Below, one piece after another: positions 1 through 13,030 of a stretch of DNA of 64,000 nucleotides. This DNA comes from Candidatus Multivorans sp. (lineage in GTDB: Bacteria; Acidobacteriota; Thermoanaerobaculia; Multivoradales; Multivoraceae). The DNA is taken from the NCBI GenBank assembly GCA_965222875.1, contig CBDCVC010000002.1:802835-866834 (forward strand), given 5' to 3'. The notes under the pieces are model-generated. The model saw only the letters and a program-made list of their open reading frames with translations. It ran no database searches and was not told the origin of the DNA. Both the position numbers and the translations under genes were made by a program. How positions within the stretch are numbered: the first letter of the stretch is position 1; the number at the start of each line of letters is the position of its first letter.

Positions 1-988
1 CCGCGAGGCGTTTGAACCGCACGTTCGTGGGAACGGCCCACCCCGACGCGTAGATCACGGTCTGCGGCGTGGCGCCCGCGCGATGGGGAATGGGGGCGAT
101 CCCCAGGTCGAGATCGCCTTCGGCGGCGTACGCCCTGAGGCGAGGCAGTTGCCAGTGCCCCGACGCCTGCATGGCCTGGAGGCCCACGAAGAAGCGACCG
201 ACGGTCATCGGGTCGGCATCGCGCTGGTACTGAAACGGCGGCACCACCTCCCACTCCGTCACCAACGACGTGAGGAACTCGAACGCCTCGACGGTCTCCT
301 CCGAATCCAAATATCCCACCGTGCGGCGTCCATCCGGATCCATGATGTCGGCACCGGCCGACCACACCCAGGGTATCCATTCGTACAACTGTCGCGGGAA
401 GTTGATGCCGTAGACGTCGGTGCGTCCGTCGCCGTCGACGTCGCGCGTGAGTCGTCGCGCCACGGCGAGAAACTCCTCCCACGTCCACCCACGTTGGTCC
501 GGCTCCGCGATGGCTCGCTCGGCGAAGAGGCGGCGGTTGTAGTACACCACCATCGGCGTGAATCCCTTGGGAAACGCAAAGAGCCGATCGCCGTTCGCGA
601 ACACGTCGAGCACCTGGGGGAACACCGCATCGGGGTCGTACCCCACCCGTGCCGCATACGGCGCGAGGTCGAGCACCAACCCCCGGTCGACGAACGCGGG
701 AATATCGGACACGTCCAAGAGAAACACATCCGGCGGGGTTCCCGCCGCGATCGACGTGATGAGTTTCTCGCCGTAGTTGGTGACAATCGACTCTACGATG
801 ACCTGCACCCCCGGACGGCTCGCCGCAAACCGATCGGCGATACGCTGCTCCATCTCGATCTCGAGGTCGGCCGCCCAATTCATGACCCGGAGCGTGACGC
901 CGGATTCGTCACTGCCGGCGTGGCACCCCGTGCCCGCAACCACGGCCACGGCCCATGCCAACCGTCGCGCAGCTCCGTACGACTTCAT
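1..988 (-). CDS. ABC transporter extracellular solute-binding lipoprotein, sugar-type; 3' end runs off the window
   Basis: The minus strand translated by hand from ATG at 988 gives MKSYGAARRLAWAVAVVAGTGCHAGSDESGVTLRVMNWAADLEIEMEQRIADRFAASRPGVQVIVESIVTNYGEKLITSIAAGTPPDVFLLDVSDIPAFVDRGLVLDL... It has a lipobox (VAGTGC) and a family-1 SBP-like composition. Its start overlaps the stop of the upstream ATPase gene by 4 nt. It is absent from the supplied ORF track because it has no stop inside the window. Confidence 0.7.
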   Translation of the reverse strand, partial: MKSYGAARRLAWAVAVVAGTGCHAGSDESGVTLRVMNWAADLEIEMEQRIADRFAASRPGVQVIVESIVTNYGEKLITSIAAGTPPDVFLLDVSDIPAFVDRGLVLDLAPYAARVGYDPDAVFPQVLDVFANGDRLFAFPKGFTPMVVYYNRRLFAERAIAEPDQRGWTWEEFLAVARRLTRDVDGDGRTDVYGINFPRQLYEWIPWVWSAGADIMDPDGRRTVGYLDSEETVEAFEFLTSLVTEWEVVPPFQYQRDADPMTVGRFFVGLQAMQASGHWQLPRLRAYAAEGDLDLGIAPIPHRAGATPQTVIYASGWAVPTNVRFKRLA

Positions 989-2073
989 GACCCCTCCTCT
1001 CCCGCCGGCGCGAGTCGCGCACCGTCAGCGCCGGCGAAGAGGTGAAGCCAGCGCCGGTCCAGGCGGACACCGATCGTGTCCCCGGGAACACACGACACAT
1101 CGGGATCGACGCGAGCAACCCAGGGCCCTCCCTGGGGACCGCCGAAGTGCACAAGGACCTCGCTCCCCAGCGGTTCCAACCGGGCCACCGTCGTGCGGAA
1201 GTCCACGTTCTCGCCATCCGTCACGAGCCTCACGGCCTCGGGGCGAACGCCCAGCGTGGCGACGCCGGCATACTCCACCAACGGCAGGTCGAGCTCCAAG
1301 TCAGTTGTGCGAAACCGGCTGGCTGAGTCTTCGGCGGTGACGTCGCCACCGACGGTATTGATCGGAGGCATCCCGATGAATCCCGCCACGAAGAGATTCG
1401 CCGGACGCCGGTAGACGTCGAGGGGCGGCGCGTACTGCTGCAATCGTCCGTCGCGCATCACCGCGATGCGATGCCCCAGGGTCATGGCCTCGACCTGATC
1501 GTGCGTGACGAACACCATCGTCGTGCCGAGCTTTTGGTGGAGGCCGGCGATCTCGGTTCGCATCTCGAGGCGAAGGCGGGCGTCGAGATTGGAGAGGGGC
1601 TCGTCGAACAGAAACACGCGAGGTTCGCGCACGAGCGCCCGCCCCAACGCCACTCGCTGTCGCTGGCCGCCCGACAGCTCGCCCGGTCTCCGGTCGAGTA
1701 GCTCCTCGACGCCCAACACCGACGCCGCCCACTCCACCTTTTCACGCGCCTCCGCCGGCTGCGTCCGCCGCATGCGGAGCCCGAAGGCGAGATTGTCGTG
1801 GACGGTCATGTGGGGATAGAGCGCGTAGTTCTGGAACACCATCGCGACGTCGCGCGCGGCGGGTTCCACCTCGTTGACGACGCGACCGTCGATCCGCACC
1901 TCGCCGGCCGTTGGCTCTTCGAGGCCGGCGATCAACCGCAACGCCGTGGTTTTGCCACACCCCGACGGTCCAAGCAACACCACGAACTCTCCTCGATCGA
2001 CCTTCAGATCGAGGGGGCGGAGCGCGGCAACCGACCCGTATCGTTTCTCCAGACCAACGAGTTCGAGGCTCAT
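985..2073 (-). CDS. ABC transporter ATP-binding protein, MalK/UgpC-type
   Basis: Walker A GPSGCGKTT, Q-loop, signature LSGGQRQRVALGRAL, Walker B LFDEPLSNLDA, H-loop VTHDQ, and a C-terminal MalK-like regulatory domain. The probable start is the internal ATG giving MSLELVGLEKRYG at 2073, rather than the ORF-track start at 2130. Confidence 0.9.
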   Translation of the reverse strand: MSLELVGLEKRYGSVAALRPLDLKVDRGEFVVLLGPSGCGKTTALRLIAGLEEPTAGEVRIDGRVVNEVEPAARDVAMVFQNYALYPHMTVHDNLAFGLRMRRTQPAEAREKVEWAASVLGVEELLDRRPGELSGGQRQRVALGRALVREPRVFLFDEPLSNLDARLRLEMRTEIAGLHQKLGTTMVFVTHDQVEAMTLGHRIAVMRDGRLQQYAPPLDVYRRPANLFVAGFIGMPPINTVGGDVTAEDSASRFRTTDLELDLPLVEYAGVATLGVRPEAVRLVTDGENVDFRTTVARLEPLGSEVLVHFGGPQGGPWVARVDPDVSCVPGDTIGVRLDRRWLHLFAGADGARLAPAGEEGS

Positions 2074-2074
2074 C

Positions 2075-4306
2075 TCACGTATAACCGATCTCGACCGGCG
2101 TCCCGACCTCGGTCTCGTACCGGTCGCCATCGACCGTAGCGGTCACGCGCGAGCCCTTCCGCATCACGGTGACATCGTGACCTCGGACCACCGCGTGCTC
2201 GACCGTTACGTCGTCCAACTCCAACGTCAACGGATCGATTGCGATGCCATCCCGCCCAGGCACGATACCGGCGACGCCGCGGAGCAGGAGGTCGAGCACC
2301 CAACTGTGTTGGTAGTCGTCGATGCCGCGGTAGACCGACGCCTGACCGGTAAACGGATTGTAATGCTCGAAGCAGTTGGGCCGGTGGACGTCGCCATTGT
2401 CGAACATCATCTCCACAAACCGCACCAGCAATCGGCCGGCCACCGGACCAACCGCTCGACGACCGCGGCGCCATTGCCGCAACAAGCCGTCGATGACGTG
2501 GCTGTTGACCATCGGCCACACGCGCCCGTTCCACGGACAGTTGTGCCGCTTTCCCTTCCATAACGGTTGGCCGGCGAAATAGGCGTCATCGAGACTGGAC
2601 GACGGTATGGGATACGGCGATCCGAACTCCTCCGGATTCTCGAGGTGCGCCACCAGCGCGCGCACGTGCTCTTCTCCGACGAGATCGGTGAGCAGCGGAT
2701 AGAAACCCACGGCGGCCTTGGCGCCAGTGCGACGCATCGTACGGGGATCGACGTCGAAGAAGAAGCCGCACTCGTCGTCCCACAGATGCTCGAGGATCGC
2801 CGCGCCGATGCGATCCGCTGCTCCACGCCATTCCGCTGACTCGTCCCCCTTGCAGAGCCGGTCGGCCATCACCGCCAGCGTCTGCTTCAGTTGATACGTG
2901 TAGACGGTGACGTCCACGCCCTTCAGTCGCAAGCCTGATTCCCGACCGTCCATATCGGCACGGTCGTCCACCGCCTGGTATCGCGCCATGTACTCCTGGC
3001 CCGTCTCGTACTGGTTCACGACGTCGTACAGACATGAGGCTTCCCGATCTCGCGTCGTGTCCAACCATCGCGCATAACGCGACAGACCGCCATACGCCGT
3101 CTCCAAGAACTCCTCGTCATCGTGTACCGCATCCACCGCCAGCACAGCATCGCCCCAGTCGGCGTGATAGAAGTCCGTGTCTTCGAGGTGGTTGGTGTAC
3201 AGACGGCCGTGCAACGATCCATCCTGGCGTTGTGCGTCCAGGAAATTCAGCAGGGTGCCGTGGGCCACATCCGGCGTTCGGCTCCACCGCATCTCCCGCA
3301 TGTGACACTGGCCGCTGTACGTAATCGGAACGTGGAAATAGCCGATCCCTTCGGCGATCGCGGGGTGCCGTACGTTGCCCGCGTCGCCGTCCAGTCGGTT
3401 GAGCCGCAAACCGAACACACGGTAATCGTAGTATCGCGTCAGGTGCTGATTGGAACAGGTGAACCGAGGAAACCCGTCAAAGAACTCTACCCACGGTGAC
3501 CGCGGATCTCGATTGCCCTGAGCTGCCACCCGACCTTTCCGCGTCTCCGGCTCCAGCCGCAGCGCGAACGACACCTCACCGGCATCGGCCAGCGGAACGT
3601 CCAGCGCCACGTACACGACATCTCGCGTTTCCACACCGCCGAGGCATACCTCGCCAGCAAGCCCCGGCGGCGATTGCTCGCGCCACTCCTCCCAGAACGG
3701 GGTCAGACGCCACAGCGGATGCATGGCACTCGGCTCCGACCGGCGCGCCGACACGAGTGCCGCGGTTCCGGCGCCCGCCGCGGCGATCGTCGCCTGCACC
3801 TGTAACGGGTGCTCGTGCCGATCGATGAGCGTGCGGCCCCACGTCAGCACGTCGCGCGCGTCGTCGCGGCGCAGGTTTTGCACGGTCTCCCACGGTTGGA
3901 CGGAAAACGCTACGAGGTGCCAGTCGCGGAGTGACGACGGCCACTCCGTAGCACCCGCGGGTTCCCAATGCGACACGAACTCACCCCCCGGCAACGCAAA
4001 CCGACGCTCGATCAACTCGGCTCGCTGCGCGCGCCACTGCACGGTCAACCCATCTGGTCGCCAATCGAGCGGCCCACGCTCCAGGGCCGCCGCCTCTCCC
4101 GTAGGACCGACCAACGCGACGGTGAACAACGGCGCGAAGGGGTGATAGTAGACGAGCGCCTCATCCCAAAACCCCGGATGGCTTAGCCATTGGGGAAACG
4201 GCGGCGCCCACACGATACCGTCCCCGCACGAGAGGTACCACTTATCGCTCCGCGCGAGAGCGTCGAGTCGATCGCCGGTAGTGGGCGCCGTGACGCCCGC
4301 GGTCAT
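2075..4306 (-). CDS. Large alpha/alpha6 (six-hairpin) glycoside hydrolase, GH63/GH133 amylo-alpha-1,6-glucosidase-like
   Basis: 743 aa rich in W/Y/D/E (e.g. FYHADWGDAVLAV, NCPWNGRVWPMVNSHVIDGLL), typical of six-hairpin glycosidases. Its stop abuts the ATPase start, in line with a sugar-uptake operon. The family assignment is by resemblance only. Confidence 0.5.
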   Translation of the reverse strand: MTAGVTAPTTGDRLDALARSDKWYLSCGDGIVWAPPFPQWLSHPGFWDEALVYYHPFAPLFTVALVGPTGEAAALERGPLDWRPDGLTVQWRAQRAELIERRFALPGGEFVSHWEPAGATEWPSSLRDWHLVAFSVQPWETVQNLRRDDARDVLTWGRTLIDRHEHPLQVQATIAAAGAGTAALVSARRSEPSAMHPLWRLTPFWEEWREQSPPGLAGEVCLGGVETRDVVYVALDVPLADAGEVSFALRLEPETRKGRVAAQGNRDPRSPWVEFFDGFPRFTCSNQHLTRYYDYRVFGLRLNRLDGDAGNVRHPAIAEGIGYFHVPITYSGQCHMREMRWSRTPDVAHGTLLNFLDAQRQDGSLHGRLYTNHLEDTDFYHADWGDAVLAVDAVHDDEEFLETAYGGLSRYARWLDTTRDREASCLYDVVNQYETGQEYMARYQAVDDRADMDGRESGLRLKGVDVTVYTYQLKQTLAVMADRLCKGDESAEWRGAADRIGAAILEHLWDDECGFFFDVDPRTMRRTGAKAAVGFYPLLTDLVGEEHVRALVAHLENPEEFGSPYPIPSSSLDDAYFAGQPLWKGKRHNCPWNGRVWPMVNSHVIDGLLRQWRRGRRAVGPVAGRLLVRFVEMMFDNGDVHRPNCFEHYNPFTGQASVYRGIDDYQHSWVLDLLLRGVAGIVPGRDGIAIDPLTLELDDVTVEHAVVRGHDVTVMRKGSRVTATVDGDRYETEVGTPVEIGYT

Positions 4307-4738
4307 CGTTCCACCAGACCGTACCCCTCACGCATGGCCCCGTCGTAGTCCCCAATCAACCGCCACCAATTGGTCAGCGGCCGGCCGCCGTACGACAGTG
4401 TGTGACCGGCGCCCGGAATGTTTTGGGTCCAGTATCGGAACCAGCCCAGGCTCGTGCACCCCCACCGCTCGCAATTCGTCCGCTGCGTGGCGCCCATGCG
4501 GTCGGGACGCCAATCTTCGCAATCGCTCTCGACGAACCGCTGATTCGCCCAGTCGTAGTCTCGCTCGCCGTTCGGCGGAATGTGCGACCACCCACACCGC
4601 GGACTCACGATACGGTGCGAGATGTCACTTCCCACGAATTTGCCCCAGAACAACAGATCGCTCCAGGCATCGTCGGGCGTCGAATCGCGCCCGTCCGCGG
4701 CATTCATCACTGCCTCCAGCTGGTGCATATGGTTTTCG
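4303..4738 (-). pseudogene. C-terminal fragment of a lipoprotein gene disrupted by an ISL3 insertion
   Basis: The ORF 4303..4764 takes its first 9 codons from the IS end and the duplicated target. Once the IS is removed it is in frame with 6087..6676. ATGA overlap with the GH gene start. Confidence 0.6.
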
Positions 4739-6078
4739 GGCGCTTCAGGGTTGTGTGTGGGCATGAAGTGACTCCGGCGCGAGGTCGAGTCCGCCGAGAT
4801 GGAAGTAGATGGCGAGCCGGAAGTGTGCTCGGTTTCGATAGCCGTGCGCTTTTCGCTTGATCTCCTGGATCTTCGCGTTGATGCCTTCGGCGCGGGCGTT
4901 GGAGATGCTGGACACAGCAGCGTTGATGACGCTATCCCAGTGGTTCTTGATCATCTTCGCCACCTGCTTGATCGGTTCCAGGCGGCTGCGGACGGCCCAG
5001 TTGTACCAGCGCTTCCACCGCCGCTCGGCCCAGCCGCGGCGCACGTAGCCCCACGAGGAGCGCGCCATCTCCTTGATCGCCCAGGCGCGGGCCACGCGAA
5101 GATGACTCGCGCGAAGAGCGGCGAAACGCCGCTGCTGCGAACCCGTCATTCCCCCACGCTTCATCAACCACAGGTAGCGGCTCCGCTTCAGACGCGAATC
5201 CCCTGCTTCGAGCAGCTCCCGCTGCTCAGCACGGCGAACCAGGTCCACGGCGTGGTTCAGGTGCGCGACGATGTGGAACCTGTCGTGCACGATGTCCGCA
5301 TCCGTGTACTCCGCCACCGAGGAGATGTAGGCCGGCCACATGTCCATCGCCACCTGCTCGATACCCGCGCAGCTTTGCTCTCCCAACTCCTCGAAGTAGC
5401 CGTCGATGGCCGACCGACCACGACCGTCGGCCACATGGGTCACCACCCCGCGTTCCAGATCGTTGACTACCGTCACGTACTCGTGGCGCTTCCGAAACGA
5501 CGTCTCGTCCACCCCGATCACCCGAGGCGGCTTCAGCTCCCGCCGTGACAGACCCCGTTCCACGGCCCGGCGCTGAATCCCCGCCGCCTGATCCCAACTC
5601 AGGCCCAGACGGCGCGCCACCGCATGCACGCTCGCCTCACGCAGCCACTCGATGGCCTCCGCCTCGAACAGCGCCGTGAACCGCGAACCCGAGTCCGCCC
5701 AAGGCACCTTCAACTGGCGAATGCCGTGCTCGACGCAACGCACCCGAGGCACCTCCGCGTGAACCCGAGTCTGGTGCTGCATCGTGTCCAAGTGACGCCA
5801 ACGGCGATGCCGCCTGTCGTACCCCGGACACGGCAAACCGCACTCCGGACAGCGCGTCTCTCCACGATGCTCGACGTGGATCTCCACCGTGCCGCCAACC
5901 ACCGGACCCCGGCGACGCGGATGGCGCTCCTCCATGCGAAGCACCACCTCCCGCACACGCCACGGCGGCTTGACCCCCAACAGCCTCTCGAACGTCTTGG
6001 CACTCTTCATCCCGCCAGTCTATGGCCGATCGGCAGCCTCTCTCCCAGCTCCATGCCCACACAACAGCCTGAAGACCC
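4739..6078. mobile_element. ISL3-family insertion sequence, about 1340 bp, with an 8-bp target-site duplication
   Basis: Imperfect terminal inverted repeats: left 4739-4765 GGCGCTTCAGGGTTGTGTGTGGGCATG and right 6053-6078 CATGCCCACACAACAGCCTGAAGACCC (the reverse complement aligns with a few mismatches). A direct 8-bp duplication GGTTTTCG lies at 4731-4738 and 6079-6086, the TSD size expected for ISL3. Confidence 0.85.
4745..6010 (-). CDS. ISL3-family transposase (IS204/IS1001/IS1096/IS1165 type)
   Basis: 421 aa with an N-terminal Cys-rich zinc-finger region ([23 protein letters not shown]) and the conserved ISL3 DDE core (VIGVDETSF..., [24 protein letters not shown]). It lies between the IRs. 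Confidence 0.9.
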
Positions 6079-6086
6079 GGTTTTCG

Positions 6087-6676
6087 ATCGCTTCCGACAG
6101 ACCGCGCTGGTAGTTGTAATGGTACACCGTATAGGTACGGCTGGTCACCGGCAGGTCGAGGGTATCGCGATCGCTGTTGCTCACGTCCCCCCAGGGACCG
6201 GCCATGTTGGACTCCCACAGGTCGATGACGCCGCCGTGATAGCCCCAGATCCACACTTCCTTCACGCCCTCGTCCTCAACCCAGCCGGCGATGTCATGAG
6301 CGGCCGCGATCGCGCCATAGTCCGTCATCGGCACGTCGTGCCCGGGTTTGTCAAAGGTGGGCAGGGGTTCGAGCCGTTCCTCCGTGTGGACCACTTGGTA
6401 GCGCAGGCTGGGAGGTGCGGCCGAGTCGACATAGGCGCGATACCGCGATCCGTCCTCGAGCGCCACGACGAGCGCCGCGGTGAGAGAATCCGTCTTCCGG
6501 CGCGTGTCGGCGATGGACTCACCCCAGTCGCCGGTGACCGATCGATCGACCACGTCACCGTCGCTCGTGGGGAGATAGCGAACCACCACCACCGGGATCT
6601 CCCACGGCGGTCCGCTCGGGCGGTCTTGGTCGGGCGCCGCCGTGCAAGCCGCGAAGAGCATGGTGCACCCCACCAC
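6087..6676 (-). pseudogene. N-terminal fragment of the IS-disrupted lipoprotein gene
   Basis: Starts MVGCTMLFAACTAAPDQ... (signal/lipobox-like). The ORF runs through the TSD into the IS and stops at 6020. It is in frame with 4303..4738 after excision of 4739-6086. Confidence 0.6.
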
Positions 6677-7154
6677 CCGGAGGGCATCGTGCGAGCCGGG
6701 GCGGCGGAGTTGCGGACGATCGGCCTGACGTTGTGACGACAGAAGAAGACTCGCGACGGGGACGGGGCTACGTTACCCGGTGCAGAGTGGAGCCCGCAAC
6801 TCGTCTGACATTCCCCTTCATCTATCCAGCTCTCTTAACATGGCGTCCGCTCCCTTTCACCACGGGTGGAGCCAGGGTGTGCCCCTACACCTGAGGTGAA
6901 TCCCTACGAAGGAAGGAAGTAGAGCCTGAACCTCCAATCGGAACAGGAACTGCGCCGCACACGGCACGCGGCCGGCCGTTTACTGCTCTCCTCTAGCAGC
7001 CCGTGGTAGAAGTCCGTGTCGCACCGAGAGCGGTCAGGCGCCCGTCCGGCAAGGCGCGACGAGGGAGCATATCGGGCCATATTCGACCGAGGAGCAACGA
7101 TGGCGGGCGGGATGCATGGCCGCTCGAATGCAGCGCGACTTCTGCCACGGGCTG

Positions 7155-10100
7155 CTAGGTCGCGACCTTGGCTTCCGTATCACCAGCCGCCAGAGCATTC
7201 ATGTACGCCAGGATCAGGTTGTTGCTCCGGTAACCACCGAACTCCGCCTCGTCCTGCCGCCGGACGATCGGAAACGTTCCCATCACATACTCCGCATCCT
7301 CGCTGGACAGTCCGTAGAGCAGGAAGTACAGCGCGTCCAAACGGGCTCGCAGGTGCCGGCGCCCCTCCTCGTCCCAGGCGAACGGCGGTCCGTCGTACCC
7401 GAGGTCCTTGGCGAACGGCTCCATGTCGTGCGCCGTGTAGGTCAGACGGAGGACGTGATCGTGGACGATGTCCAGAGCAGTCTTGTTCCCGAACTGGCGC
7501 TCGTAGTCCCCGGCCGCGATGACCGGCAACTGCTCGACGATGAACCAGTTCAGATGCTGGCCTTGGACCTTCTGCCGGGCAACGAAGTCGAACACGAAGG
7601 AGTTTAGGTTGGCGGCGAGCAGCCACAGTGCCTCGGCGTCCGCCACAGTTGAGTCGGAGCCACTGGGCACAAGCAAGGGCAGCGTGTTACCTACGCCAGA
7701 GCGAGGCACGAGAGCCGCGATCATGGTGCGGACGTTCGTCGGCGCGGTAACGTCCTTGAAGGCGAGTGCCCAATCGAGACTCCCAGGCCAGTCCATGTCA
7801 TCGGCCGACACCCAGAACTGCGGAGCGGGCGACCAACTCGGATTGGCATGCTCCTCCAACGTCGCCTCTCGCGGCTGCGCCGGACGGTTCAGGTTCTCCG
7901 GGTTCAACACCACGCTCGCCGCTCGGTGGTCGAAAGCCTGGACCATCTTGCCTTCATACAGGGGCAGCCAGGCATCCTCACCTCGTTTCCATCTATTCCC
8001 AGCGACCGGATAGCAGCCGTCTGCTTCGAGTTCCGCAGCTGTCCGAAACAGGTGGGAGTCATTCGTCATGTGGAACATCGTCTTGTAGCGAACCGGCCAT
8101 GCGCGACGCTCACCACCGCTCGACCGGTCCACCAGCACCGGATGACGTTCGTAGATGCGCCTAGTGATCTCAGCGTCTCGCCGTGTGCGGAACACCGGCG
8201 CCGTGCCGGTGTTCGGATTGACCCGCGTGAAATCGGCCGGGCTCAGGGGGAAGCACCGTTCCGGGTCGCTCAGATCTCCTGCGCTATCCAGGAAGAACCC
8301 GCACGGAGTCTCCGCGAACGTCCGTTCGGCGCCGCCGAGAATCAGAGCGGAGAACTTGAAGCTCCGGTGGACATCCGGGAAGAACGGCGGCAGACCGGTC
8401 CCGAGCCGACGATTCTCGAAGTCGAACAAGCCCGCCACCCGGCCGCGGGTGGACATCGACTGGAAGAACGGCGCGGCCGTCTTGTCGGCGTAGATACCTG
8501 AAGGCACGAGCAGCCCCATCAGGCCGCCCGGCCTGAGCACGTTCAGCGTCCGCTCGACGAACAGCGAGTACAAGTTGATGTCGCCCCTGCCGAGCAACGG
8601 ATAGTCGCCTGAAGTCCGGAACAGCCTCAGGAGGCTGTCGGCGCGTTGCTTCGCTTCGTCGAACCCGGCGGCCAGCGGTTCGCCCCGGTCGCGGAGCTTC
8701 TTGATGCCCTTCCGCCGCAAAGCCGCGGTGGGAGCGCGGGCAAGCTCCGGGTCGCGGGTCCCGAACCACTCCACTTCCTGCAGTTTGATCCGGTCCCAGG
8801 GAGGATTGCCGATCACCGCATCGAACCCGCCCTCTGGGCTGCGCCGCTGCCAATGTCGCCAGACTCCCGGGAAGGCAACCTCCCAATGCAGGAAGGTCTC
8901 CCGTTCGGCCAGGGCGCGGGCATCGCGCCATAGCTCGACGAATCTCGAGAGGCCGGCGTCGTCCGAACTGGCCGATGTCGAATCGATGGCTCCCGGACCC
9001 TCTGCGAGGAGTGAATACGCCCTGGCCGGATAGGCGCCTATCACTTCGAGCAATCCACGCGTCTCGAACTCGTTGCGCTGCTTCTTCTTCATGCCCGCGG
9101 TCAGCCAGCGCAAGGCGCACAGGAAGTCGAGCACGCGGCGTAACTCGGAGGTCGCCTGGTCGACACCCTCGAAGAGCCTGGCCGACTCTCGCACCTCCGC
9201 CACGTCCGCGTCGGACATCTCCTCGATCAGCTCCATCCCGGCAACCGCGTTCTCGGCGCCCTGGATGGCGCTGGAAGCGATCAGCCCACCAAGGCGGCTG
9301 AGTTCGTCCGTTCCATCGCCGACCCTGAGTCCGACGAGAGAATCGCCGCACCGCAGATGATGATCCAGGAACGACAGCGGCGCACCGACGGTGAAGCTGT
9401 GCAGCCACAGCGACACCTTGGCCAGCTCCACCGTCAGGCGGTTCTTGTCCACGCCGTAGATACAGCGCTTGAGCACCATCCGCCGGATGATCGCCTGATC
9501 CGTGAGTTGCGCCTCGTCGATCACCCATTCCGACTCCGCGGCTCGCAGCAGGATGCCATGACGGATGGCCTCGATGCGCCGGACCAGTGGCGACTCGTAC
9601 GGCTCTTCCAGCCAGACCGGCACCGCCGGCACGTACTCGATGAGTTCCGCCACGAAGTCGGACAGGAAGTCCACGGCAGTGACCAGGAAGTGACCGCTTC
9701 CCATTGCCGGATCGAGCACCTTTAGACCCAGCACGGCCTCCGCCGGGTCAATCAGCGCCAACTCCGCCAAGCGCTCGTCCTTGGTCCTGCGGTCGCTCTT
9801 CAGTTCCTCGGCCTTCGCCTCGAAGGCGCGTAGCCGCTCTTCCGCCAGCGGCTTCAGCGACTGCTCGACGATCAGATCGACCAACTCCTGGGGCGTGTAG
9901 AAGCTGCCACTGTCCTTGCGGGCAAAGCGGTTGGGCCGGACCTTGACCGCGCCACTCGGCTCCCGAAAAGGCTCGCGCTCCAGGAGCCGCTCGTAGAGCG
10001 AACCAAGTTGTTGGACCGACATGTCACGGTAGTTGACGAACCGGGCCCGGCCATCGGCTCCTTCCCCTAGGTGGCTGAGTCCGAAGATGACCGGCGCGGT

Positions 10101-11225
10101 CTCGCTATCGGCCAGGCGAACCTTCGCCAGCAACGGCGCCGCCTCCTCAGCGAACAGGCCACCGTTGTAGGGCGGGAGTCCGATCGACGAATCGCCGCGG
10201 TCGATCTGCCGGAAGAGCTCCAGGAGACGGTTCCAATAGTTGGCCGCCGTGCTCGAGAGCGTGTCCCGCTCAGCCACTCTGCGAGCGATGTCGTCGCGCA
10301 CCCTCCCTCGCAGTCCGTAGTCGTCGTACCTCGAATCGTTCACCGGCAGCAGGCCGCGATCCTCGGCGTAGAGCACGAACAGCAGCCGGTAGAGAAAGAT
10401 CAGCGCAGCGTCCCGGATCTCGTGGAGATCGGCTGACGGCGCCTCTGCGGCCAACGCATTCAAGAGCCGGGGAAACGCATCGTCGAAAACGACCCTGGAC
10501 AGGTCCTCGGCAACCCTCTCCTCGTAGCGTTTCCCCTCCGCGATGGCCGAGTCGATGAAGGTCTCCGTGGCGCCGTCCTGCAGAGCGAAAGCACTGCGGC
10601 CGAACAGGAGAAAGAACGTTCTCAGACCGTCCTCGTCGCCCTGTTCCAACATCGCCCGAAGGTCCGCCTCGAAGTACCCACTCGCGCGGGGGCGAGCGCG
10701 ATGGTCGTAGAGCCGCCAGACACCGCCGTTCGTCAAGATGCCCCAACGGATTCGGCCATCCGAGACACTCTCGGCGGTGGCCAGATACCGGAGAATCTGC
10801 CCGTGTGGCGTACCCACATACAAGCGACCGGCACGGTCCCGGCCATCCAGAGGCAGACCGAACCGCTTGCTCTCCTGGACCAGGAGAGCGTCGGGATAGC
10901 GGTCGCCGGGAACGGCACGTTGGTTGGCGCGGGCCTTTGATTCGGCGTCTTCGAACAGCAGGTGGTCCGGGACGTCCTCGCCCCGCGCAGTCGCCTGCTG
11001 CGGCAGGTAGTGCGACCATCCGAGCAGCTCCAGGATGGGCCGGATCAGATCCGCCTCGGTGACCGCCTCATTCGGATCGCTGGAGCGGCTGAACGCCGCG
11101 AGGAGAGTGGGGACACCCGCCTGGAACTCGGCGAAGGTCTCCGGGTCACGGACCGACTCCCGCCACTCTGCCGTGTCCCGAATACCGTCGGTGAGGAAGT
11201 ACTGGGTGAAGAGTTGGCCAGGCAA
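7155..11225 (-). CDS. Single-polypeptide restriction-modification enzyme, type IIG/IIL (Eco57I/MmeI-like): N-terminal PD-ExK nuclease, gamma-class N6-adenine methyltransferase, and C-terminal target-recognition region
   Basis: 1356 aa. The N-terminal region has PD...E-S-K-like motifs (VPDHLLFEDAESK / YPDALLVQESKRFG). AdoMet motif I is VLDPAMGSGHFLV and catalytic motif IV is VIGNPPWDRIK, followed by INLYSLFVERTLNVLRPGGLMGLLVPSG. The roughly 450-aa C-terminal region is probably the TRD. No Walker-A helicase motifs are present, so it is not type ISP. No BREX or DISARM partner genes lie nearby. Confidence 0.7.
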   Translation of the reverse strand: MPGQLFTQYFLTDGIRDTAEWRESVRDPETFAEFQAGVPTLLAAFSRSSDPNEAVTEADLIRPILELLGWSHYLPQQATARGEDVPDHLLFEDAESKARANQRAVPGDRYPDALLVQESKRFGLPLDGRDRAGRLYVGTPHGQILRYLATAESVSDGRIRWGILTNGGVWRLYDHRARPRASGYFEADLRAMLEQGDEDGLRTFFLLFGRSAFALQDGATETFIDSAIAEGKRYEERVAEDLSRVVFDDAFPRLLNALAAEAPSADLHEIRDAALIFLYRLLFVLYAEDRGLLPVNDSRYDDYGLRGRVRDDIARRVAERDTLSSTAANYWNRLLELFRQIDRGDSSIGLPPYNGGLFAEEAAPLLAKVRLADSETAPVIFGLSHLGEGADGRARFVNYRDMSVQQLGSLYERLLEREPFREPSGAVKVRPNRFARKDSGSFYTPQELVDLIVEQSLKPLAEERLRAFEAKAEELKSDRRTKDERLAELALIDPAEAVLGLKVLDPAMGSGHFLVTAVDFLSDFVAELIEYVPAVPVWLEEPYESPLVRRIEAIRHGILLRAAESEWVIDEAQLTDQAIIRRMVLKRCIYGVDKNRLTVELAKVSLWLHSFTVGAPLSFLDHHLRCGDSLVGLRVGDGTDELSRLGGLIASSAIQGAENAVAGMELIEEMSDADVAEVRESARLFEGVDQATSELRRVLDFLCALRWLTAGMKKKQRNEFETRGLLEVIGAYPARAYSLLAEGPGAIDSTSASSDDAGLSRFVELWRDARALAERETFLHWEVAFPGVWRHWQRRSPEGGFDAVIGNPPWDRIKLQEVEWFGTRDPELARAPTAALRRKGIKKLRDRGEPLAAGFDEAKQRADSLLRLFRTSGDYPLLGRGDINLYSLFVERTLNVLRPGGLMGLLVPSGIYADKTAAPFFQSMSTRGRVAGLFDFENRRLGTGLPPFFPDVHRSFKFSALILGGAERTFAETPCGFFLDSAGDLSDPERCFPLSPADFTRVNPNTGTAPVFRTRRDAEITRRIYERHPVLVDRSSGGERRAWPVRYKTMFHMTNDSHLFRTAAELEADGCYPVAGNRWKRGEDAWLPLYEGKMVQAFDHRAASVVLNPENLNRPAQPREATLEEHANPSWSPAPQFWVSADDMDWPGSLDWALAFKDVTAPTNVRTMIAALVPRSGVGNTLPLLVPSGSDSTVADAEALWLLAANLNSFVFDFVARQKVQGQHLNWFIVEQLPVIAAGDYERQFGNKTALDIVHDHVLRLTYTAHDMEPFAKDLGYDGPPFAWDEEGRRHLRARLDALYFLLYGLSSEDAEYVMGTFPIVRRQDEAEFGGYRSNNLILAYMNALAAGDTEAKVAT

Positions 11226-11584: not shown

Positions 11585-13030
11585 ATGATTGACAAACAAA
11601 CCGGCATGAGCAGCAAGGAGCGCATGGGCGAGGAGATCGCGGCGCTCGCCGCGCGCATTGACGCGGCGACCTATGAGCTGCTCGTCCTGATCCGCAAGTT
11701 CGATGAAAAGGAAGGCTGGAACCGCGGCTTCCTCACTTGCGCCCACTGGCTCACCTGGCGGATCGGTCTGGCGCCCGGCGCGGCCCGTGAGCGGGTGCGA
11801 GTCGCCCGGGCTCTGGGCGACCTGCCCTTGATGAGTGCGGCAATGAGCAGGGGCGAGCTCTCCTACTCCAAGGTGAGGGCGCTCACCCGCATCGCCACGC
11901 CCGACACCGAGCAGTCGCTGGTGGACCTGGGCAAGACCGGAACCGCGGCGCAGGTCGAGCGAGTGGTGAGAAGCTGGCGAAGGATCGACCGCACGGTCGA
12001 GGCCTATGACGATGAGCTGCGCGACGCGTCGAGTCACGTGACGACCCACATCGACGAGAACGGCATGTTCGTGATCCGCGGATGTCTGGCGCCGGAGGCG
12101 GGCGAAGTGCTGATGAAGGCACTCGATGCGGCGGGCGACAGGCTCTATGCCGAGCAGCGGGAAGACAAACCACCGGTCGGCAAGATCCGCGCCGATGCGC
12201 TTGCCCTCGTGGCCGAGAGCGCGCTCAGGGCCGGTCTCGATCCGGGATCGAGCGGTGACCGCTACCTGGTCGTGGTTCATGCGAACGAGGCGGAGCTGAC
12301 GGCGCAGGAGAGCGCGACGGCTGACAGCCGGGCTCACGTTCCCGCGGGAACGTCCGGGGCTCGCGTTCCCACGGAAACGCGAGGGGACCGCGACACGGAT
12401 GCGGGCGAGACGCCGGCGTTGCCAGGAGTTGCCAACGGCGCCTGGCTCGGGACCGCCCATGTCCCCGTTTCCGCGGAAACAGCCCGGAGGATCGCCTGCG
12501 ACGCCGGCAGAGTCTCGATGGCCCACCGGAACGGCCAGATCCTGAGCGTTGGCCGCAAGACCCGCACGATTCCGCCGCCGATCCGCCGGGCCCTGGAGTT
12601 TCGCGACCAGGGTTGCCGCTTCCCCGGCTGCACATCGCAGCATTGCGACGCTCACCACATCGTCCACTGGGCCGACGGCGGCGAAACGAAGCTCTCGAAC
12701 CTCGTGCTTCTCTGCCGCCGGCACCACCGCCTGCTCCACGAAGGCGGCTTCACCGTGAAGATGAACGAGGAACGCGCCGTTCAGTTCCGCGACAAACGTG
12801 GTCGGCCGCTGGAGCGCAGCCCGGCGCCGCCACCAGTTGGCTCGTACCCTGCCCGCGAGCTGATCCGCCAGTTGGAGGACGCCGGCATCCTGATCACCGG
12901 CAAGGAGTCAATGCCGGCCTGGGACGGCACACCGATGGACCTGCCCTACGTGATGGAGTGCCTGTGGCGACCGCCGCCGCATCTCGAAGCAGCGGTTGCC
13001 CGGGAACGAAACACATCGCACGCCGCGTAG
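11585..13030 (+). CDS. DUF222 / HNH endonuclease-signature protein (REP13E12-like family)
   Basis: 481 aa with an N-terminal DUF222-like region and a C-terminal HNH region with Cys/His ligands (GCRFPGCTSQHCDAHHIVHWADGGETKLSNLVLLCRRHHRLLHEGG). Confidence 0.8.
   Translation: MIDKQTGMSSKERMGEEIAALAARIDAATYELLVLIRKFDEKEGWNRGFLTCAHWLTWRIGLAPGAARERVRVARALGDLPLMSAAMSRGELSYSKVRALTRIATPDTEQSLVDLGKTGTAAQVERVVRSWRRIDRTVEAYDDELRDASSHVTTHIDENGMFVIRGCLAPEAGEVLMKALDAAGDRLYAEQREDKPPVGKIRADALALVAESALRAGLDPGSSGDRYLVVVHANEAELTAQESATADSRAHVPAGTSGARVPTETRGDRDTDAGETPALPGVANGAWLGTAHVPVSAETARRIACDAGRVSMAHRNGQILSVGRKTRTIPPPIRRALEFRDQGCRFPGCTSQHCDAHHIVHWADGGETKLSNLVLLCRRHHRLLHEGGFTVKMNEERAVQFRDKRGRPLERSPAPPPVGSYPARELIRQLEDAGILITGKESMPAWDGTPMDLPYVMECLWRPPPHLEAAVARERNTSHAA

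Follow-up and report, generated by a model that had tools for sequence, protein, structure and literature searches.

The stretch of Candidatus Multivorans DNA analysed here, 64,000 nucleotides (nt) in length and referred to below as the window, carries near one end a gene that is interrupted by a complete insertion sequence (IS) of the ISL3 family. The element occupies positions 4739..6078 on the minus strand, measures 1,340 bp and contains one transposase gene without passenger genes; its limits are those of exact homology among its copies and of the loci that have an empty site. The left, transposase-proximal terminal inverted repeat lies at 6052..6078 and reads GGGTCTTCAGGCTGTTGTGTGGGCATG on the minus strand, and the right terminal inverted repeat, also assigned to the minus strand, lies at 4739..4765 and reads GGCGCTTCAGGGTTGTGTGTGGGCATG on the plus strand. 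These repeats are imperfect, extend over approximately 23-27 bp and match at 24 of 31 positions, so the inverted repeats reported in a first-pass annotation of this DNA hold on re-examination. A repeat search returned the arms 4743-4768/6049-6074, with 85% complementarity over 26 nt, as the longest inverted pair in the region, and the first 23 nt of the left repeat are kept in nearly all of the 16 copies that were compared. An outward-reading ATG (4764-4762) is located within the right repeat and is preceded by a GGAG just inside the IS beyond the repeat. Flanking the element is a perfect 8-bp target-site duplication, GGTTTTCG, whose copies at 4731..4738 and 6079..6086 were also claimed in the first-pass annotation; on the plus strand this octamer is found at these two places and nowhere else in the window, and it is present as a single copy in empty-site alleles. 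Within the 64-kb window the IS is single-copy, and its transposase is the only one of the ISL3 type.

The interrupted gene, which we call gene X, is encoded on the minus strand, with its 5' part at 6087..6676 (codons 1-197 of a 341-codon reading) and its 3' part, from codon 198, at 4303..4738. Removal of 4739-6086 (1,348 bp) restores 1,026 nt, or 341 codons and a stop, that read ...GLSEAIEN|HMHQLEAV... across the junction. Thus the in-frame fusion of the two fragments, the 341-amino-acid product and the junction that had been predicted are all correct. Candidate starts for this reading are GTG 6676, GTG 6673 and ATG 6661. At present the 5' part belongs to an open reading frame (ORF) at 6020-6676 that extends into the IS and specifies 218 amino acids, 199 of them native and 19 IS-derived, with its stop codon (6020-6022) situated 9 nt ahead of the transposase ATG. 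The first-pass annotation was right that this fragment runs into the element but had counted 22 IS codons, a value that is approached only if the second repeat copy is included. The 3' part forms a 153-amino-acid ORF that begins at the IS-borne ATG 4764, takes 9 codons (MPTHNPEAP) from the IS end, exactly as had been stated, and has a stop codon that overlaps the start of the following glycoside hydrolase gene (ATGA). It is very unlikely that either fragment still functions, and for annotation purposes the 213/218- and 153-amino-acid products are best merged and flagged as one pseudogene.

The transposase gene (4745..6010, minus strand) follows a leader of 68 nt, encodes 421 amino acids and has its stop codon inside the right inverted repeat. 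The protein consists of zinc ribbon, helix-turn-helix and DDE domains, identified by Pfam as Zn_ribbon_ISL3, HTH_Tnp_ISL3 and DDE_Tnp_ISL3, with E-values of 3.3e-74 for DDE_Tnp_ISL3 (PF01610, over the full profile), 1.8e-15 for PF13542 and 4.4e-10 for PF14690. It also scores 327.7 bits against the NCBIfam ISL3 equivalog NF033550 (transpos_ISL3), for which the cutoff is 180. Both the domains and the score bear out the earlier assignment to the ISL3 type. According to the ISfinder description, elements of the ISL3 family are approximately 1.2-1.55 kb long and have one transposase ORF that fills the element, and the 1,340 bp and single filling ORF observed here fit that description. The terminal repeats conform as well, as they are imperfect, fall within the range of approximately 15-40 bp and start with GG(G/C)(T/G)CTTC. 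For example, the repeat GGGTCTTCGGA and an 8-bp target duplication have been published for an ISL3-type element (PMC9782665); our element has the same left terminus, GGGTCTTC, and shares the 8-bp duplication. When compared with the ISKox3-type elements of enterobacterial plasmids and with the ISL3-type ends of Tn7546 from Staphylococcus hominis, the element has the same transposase domain architecture and is alike in its single ORF, its 1.34-kb length, repeats that begin GGGTCTTC/GGCGCTTC, its 8-bp duplication and its AT-rich targets. However, its transposase is only about 36-40% identical to those of named plasmid-borne ISL3 relatives (the ISKox3 type is closest in the plasmid collection, at about 40%), and its host, a member of an uncultured Acidobacteriota/Thermoanaerobaculia lineage, also differs from theirs. 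Given that other copies share its end-points and have duplications of their own, that its terminus matches and that named transposases are about 40% identical, the element is to all appearances an additional, active-looking member of the ISL3 family, and it probably lacks a registered name.

The most direct evidence for insertion comes from related contigs. The 743-amino-acid hydrolase next to gene X is encoded as an identical protein on six public contigs, five of which (L008, L009, L010, L012 and L013) have an intact 336-amino-acid gene X adjoining it, with one octamer and no IS. In these five loci window segments 6997..6079 and 4746..1 abut at 99.5-100% identity, and their 16-nt overlap corresponds to one octamer plus a few chance matches. 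The sixth contig (ctg778582_6x_l, recorded as L007/L011) has the same IS at the same site with zero mismatches in the IS and gene X, and both gene X fragments are on record on a 2.07-Mb contig that is probably the source of the window itself. Both states occur in sample ERZ25067264, where the contig with the IS allele bears the label 6x and those with intact alleles the labels 30x and 43x. L012 encodes exactly the restored protein, from a gene that differs at one synonymous nucleotide, and the closest intact homologues align with this protein at 90-91% identity over 100% of its length with no gap at the junction. An orthologue from another species (L001, 92% nucleotide identity) is likewise uninterrupted and gap-free at the junction, which argues that the insertion is the derived state. 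The search with the restored ORF thus places both fragments colinearly on intact homologues and not on unrelated proteins, and the uninterrupted allele with one octamer that the first-pass annotation anticipated does exist, in near-identical co-occurring strains. The description of the insertion as recent is also sustained by the perfect repeat, the intact transposase and the identity of the restored protein with the L012 allele.

Copies of the element elsewhere confirm its end-points. When one genome was scanned for each species, 25 related loci came to light, nearly all in chromosome-level metagenome-assembled genomes (MAGs) named Candidatus Multivorans, Multivoraceae or Thermoanaerobaculia. 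Among these are 15 other full-length copies with 83-96% nucleotide identity, each of which aligns with element positions 1 to 1,340 and no further, and 12 of the 15 are flanked by perfect 8-bp duplications that are all different. Four full-length copies plus one interrupted (L029) and one fragmentary (L038) copy are present in OZ245033.1, six full-length copies in OZ242353.1, and sister copies at other insertion sites, with 83-99% nucleotide identity across all 1,340 bp, the same end-points and 8-bp duplications, are located in these two as well as in OZ244782.1, OY762911.1 and OZ244152.1. The empty sites and the several copies per genome demonstrate by sequence comparison that the element is multi-copy and mobile. 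The 13 duplications have a mean guanine-plus-cytosine (GC) content of 45%, versus 64% in the 8-mers that flank them (P about 1e-5 by resampling), and no 14-mer of gene X has a lower GC content than the one that holds its target (tied rank 1 of 1,013). An AT-rich target preference in a genome of 65-67% GC would steer insertions to particular codons, in this case those of an invariant E-N-H-M-H segment. Truncated or interrupted sister copies are represented by L014, L029, L030, L032 and L038. The closest copy of all, with 99.3% nucleotide identity, is L014 (OZ244152.1:3811109-3818362), in which the initial 84 nt, and with them the left inverted repeat, are missing; it is a dead copy at a different locus of a related genome.

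The series of events that we propose is that a DDE insertion sequence of the ISL3 family (1,340 bp, cut-and-paste) would have transposed into gene X, duplicated its 8-bp target and inserted at the most AT-rich point of the gene, where the invariant E-N-H-M-H-Q helix segment happens to be encoded. Gene X would thereby have been split into the 218- and 153-amino-acid ORFs and inactivated, and as co-occurring strains keep the intact allele the event would be recent and polymorphic. We consider it almost certain that the locus represents such a recent, still polymorphic ISL3 insertion that split and presumably inactivated gene X, and the empty-site alleles together with the exact end-points of the other copies exclude chance as the source of the pattern. 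Nothing speaks against the insertion itself. The reservations on the wider reading are that the coverage values are labels in contig names and do not come from reads, that loss of gene X function is a deduction, and that the promoter and terminator scans described below relied on consensus patterns of the E. coli type, which may be unsuited to this phylum. Repeats can cause misjoins in metagenome assemblies, and with an element that is multi-copy in related genomes a repeated IS could have been misplaced into gene X during assembly, but such a misjoin would not produce a perfect 8-bp target duplication, both junctions recur in an independent contig of another assembly and the window has a single IS copy, all of which makes an artefact exceedingly improbable. 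There is just as little probability that the IS-bearing state is ancestral and that the intact alleles arose by precise excision. Although presence/absence polymorphism by itself has no direction, no orthologue with 57-91% identity from Gemmatimonadota-, Planctomycetota- and Verrucomicrobiota-labelled MAGs is interrupted at this position, the gene X fragments show no decay, and it is rare for an element to excise so precisely that a single repeat copy is left. An ancestral IS would go with IS-bearing haplotypes that are basal and diverse among the strains, and the pattern in the present data is the opposite. A different kind of alternative is that the insertion is adaptive, either through selection against a surface or secreted protein X or through IS-driven expression gained by downstream genes. 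Several independent IS events in the population (an IS1634-type element, present in both orientations at a CTAG site upstream of gene X, and one of DDE_3 type within a restriction-modification gene) and the presence of the IS allele as the assembled state of the 2.07-Mb contig are compatible with selection; however, there is no sign of a sweep, as intact alleles are on the higher-coverage contigs where both occur (coverage being taken from contig names), and the AT-rich target preference alone accounts for the site, so we regard an adaptive origin as quite unlikely. With a recent polymorphic insertion as the preferred explanation, the locus provides a clean case of IS-driven gene inactivation segregating in a natural population, for which the filled site, the empty site and the orthologues are all known. 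It also records an active-looking element of the ISL3 type from a Thermoanaerobaculia lineage that is uncultured. The event is of an ordinary kind and its importance is modest.

How far the insertion would affect the genes downstream of gene X is less certain; the first-pass annotation had taken it to be probably polar. As the element places 1.3 kb of foreign DNA in the first cistron of a cluster that is tightly coupled by ATGA overlaps, and as the premature stop at 6020-6022 could permit Rho-dependent termination, strong polarity that silences the downstream hydrolase and ABC (ATP-binding cassette) sugar-uptake genes along with gene X has an appreciable chance, yet it is not what we expect. 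The transposase gene is co-oriented with the operon, and no terminator-like site was predicted on the minus strand inside the IS, the only one being located at 6967-6952 (minus strand), upstream of gene X. Translation across the IS region is almost continuous, with untranslated gaps of approximately 9 nt. Additionally, the GGAG-7 nt-ATG at 4764 provides an IS-borne Shine-Dalgarno sequence and start codon, from which the 3' part of gene X can be read in frame as far as the ATGA that it shares with the hydrolase gene, and thus would re-establish coupling to the hydrolase. Since so little untranslated RNA is exposed, read-through from a gene X or transposase promoter is plausible. A sigma-70 promoter scan of 4200-7300, based on an E. 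coli-type consensus that may not suit this phylum, found none. From the co-oriented transposase, the lack of a predicted terminator, the near-continuous translation, the IS-borne start signals and the ATGA coupling we infer that the polarity on the hydrolase and ABC-transporter genes is probably only weak.

Gene X itself belongs to a large family without annotation. A database clustered at 90% contains more than 1,175 homologues of the restored protein, none of which is named or contains a Pfam domain, and an exhaustive profile search yielded at least 2,317 representatives at 50% identity. Neither Pfam nor NCBIfam assigned the restored protein to a family when it was scanned, and a profile search of PDB sequences with gene X gave only a chance match to an antibody light chain (E 0.43). 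Many relatives are domains in larger proteins that also contain subtilase, C39-like peptidase, C-type lectin, PA14/dockerin or Ig-like modules, and these fusions point to an extracellular role, either secreted or at the surface. An alignment of 75 sequences contains 65 invariant columns, with invariant motifs that include WESN, YHYNYQRG, E-[ND]-H-x-H-Q-x-E and DGRD. The invariant residues E195, E198, H200, H202, Q203 and E205 flank the insertion point, as the IS cuts a helix (193-212) between N199 and H200 within the invariant segment E-N|H-x-H-Q. The AlphaFold model of the protein is confident, with a predicted local distance difference test (pLDDT) score of 91.7, and the conserved helix reads SEAIENHMHQLEAV. 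The nearest solved folds are the catalytic domains of adamalysin/ADAM-type metzincins, with template modelling (TM) scores of only about 0.3. Unlike those enzymes, protein X does not contain the HExxHxxGxxH motif but has the invariant helix E-x-x-E-[ND]-H-x-H-Q-x-E. At the sequence level it matches nothing in Pfam, NCBIfam or PDB. Membership in the metzincins was considered and rejected on the ground that the HExxHxxGxxH/D zinc-binding motif is absent. It is conceivable, if rather doubtful, that the family constitutes a new class of extracellular metallohydrolase, in which case the IS polymorphism would represent a natural knock-out in one population. This widely distributed, unannotated family is a possible lead for enzyme discovery and is the only part of the present analysis with some discovery potential. 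Sequence variation in gene X is not confined to the insertion, as the intact alleles L009, L010 and L013 have a P317L substitution (codon 317, window position 4379). Because P317 is invariant in an alignment of 13 sequences, some of the IS-free alleles may be impaired too.

That the product of gene X is a lipoprotein, as the first-pass annotation supposed, is only suggested by its L-F-A-A-C motif. In bacterial lipoproteins the signal peptide has a positively charged n-region and a hydrophobic core, and the lipobox [LVI][ASTVI][GAS]C places the Cys at about residue 15-35. The Cys in its lipobox context is kept in closer homologues (P0005, P0008 and P0011), whose more distant counterparts have signal peptides of the ordinary kind that lack this Cys. 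The segment that precedes the Cys in this species is only 5-10 residues long and contains no K or R, and gene callers start the protein at MLFAAC. We considered a longer N-terminus, which is ruled out in the intact alleles as well by an in-frame TAA that lies 40 codons upstream of GTG 6676 with no ATG, GTG or TTG between; it is this lack of a start codon that limits the pre-Cys segment to at most 10 residues.

Downstream of gene X on the minus strand is a cluster of genes for sugar utilization. The second gene (2075..4306) codes for an MGH1-like/GH63-clan glycoside hydrolase of 743 amino acids (Pfam PF22422 at 2.8e-44 and Trehalase at 2.5e-9) and the third (985..2073) for a UgpC/MalK-type ABC ATPase of 362 amino acids from ATG 2073, with scores of 429.5 bits for UgpC and 348.5 bits for MalK in NCBIfam and with the Pfam domains ABC_tran and TOBE_2. 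Next comes a gene for a solute-binding protein (SBP_bac_1, 1..988, minus strand), identified with the help of related contigs, which runs off the window so that only its 5' part is included. ATGA overlaps join gene X to the hydrolase (4303-4306) and the ATPase to the binding protein (985-988), and the hydrolase stop (2075-2077) is separated by a 1-nt gap from the likely ATPase start at ATG 2073. On longer related contigs two permeases and a second GH63-like gene come next, so that a CUT1-type ABC transporter and glycoside hydrolases are both represented, as in a carbohydrate-uptake operon. From the overlaps and domain matches, the view that gene X is first in a minus-strand sugar-utilization cluster is right for this lineage. 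The arrangement is, though, a lineage-specific link and not a trait of the gene X family. For example, a 90%-identical orthologue of gene X is followed by an S9 peptidase, and five inspected gene X contexts all differ, with an adjoining MGH1-like hydrolase in one of them (L044). Among 80 metagenomic gene X loci an MGH1-like neighbour occurs in 2, no neighbour family occurs in more than 8, a sugar-binding protein or permeases occur in none, and ATPase-like matches (39% identity) are limited to two near-identical loci. With no conserved neighbour in the five contexts and 80 loci, operon context was rejected as a clue to gene X function. Across the entire window neither an Rfam match nor a tRNA was found, and a search of the literature on 'Candidatus Multivorans' found nothing useful.

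The region upstream of gene X is variable among strains and contains additional mobile DNA. Directly upstream is a gene (7155-11225, minus strand) for an Eco57I-like (type IIG-like) methyltransferase/restriction protein, a single polypeptide of 1,356 amino acids with a Pfam Eco57I match of 6e-18 and weak PglX/MmeI-like matches; in haplotype L008 this gene is present as a variant with only 84% nucleotide identity. A CTAG at approximately 6993-6997, between the restriction-modification gene and gene X, is occupied by a different IS in strains with an intact gene X, and this IS is absent from the window. It is an IS1634-family element with a 574-amino-acid transposase (346.5 bits in NCBIfam), present at L012:2685-4657, L010:3004-4657, L009:3017-4657 and L013:1-207. 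The L012 copy is full length (1,973 bp), and those in L009 and L010 have the opposite orientation and a 314-bp internal deletion, which implies either two independent IS1634-type insertions at one CTAG site or an inversion in situ. In addition, an insertion of approximately 1.2 kb in L009 (628-1842) that encodes a DDE_3 (IS630-type) transposase interrupts the restriction-modification gene at window position ~8161-8166, and the gene caller for L009 merged this gene and the insertion into a 1,424-amino-acid product. The locus thus looks like an IS playground in this population. Farther upstream, on the plus strand at 11585-13030, is a gene for a 481-amino-acid DUF222/HNH endonuclease protein, a family often associated with mobile DNA, and a region 80% similar to it adjoins another copy of the ISL3 element in L026. 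Finally, when the window is compared with the IS-bearing contig L011, 19 of the 22 mismatches fall within 204-842, in the solute-binding protein gene, and the divergence of this 640-nt stretch, about 3% as compared with about 0.03% elsewhere, suggests a recombination tract or a strain-mixed consensus.

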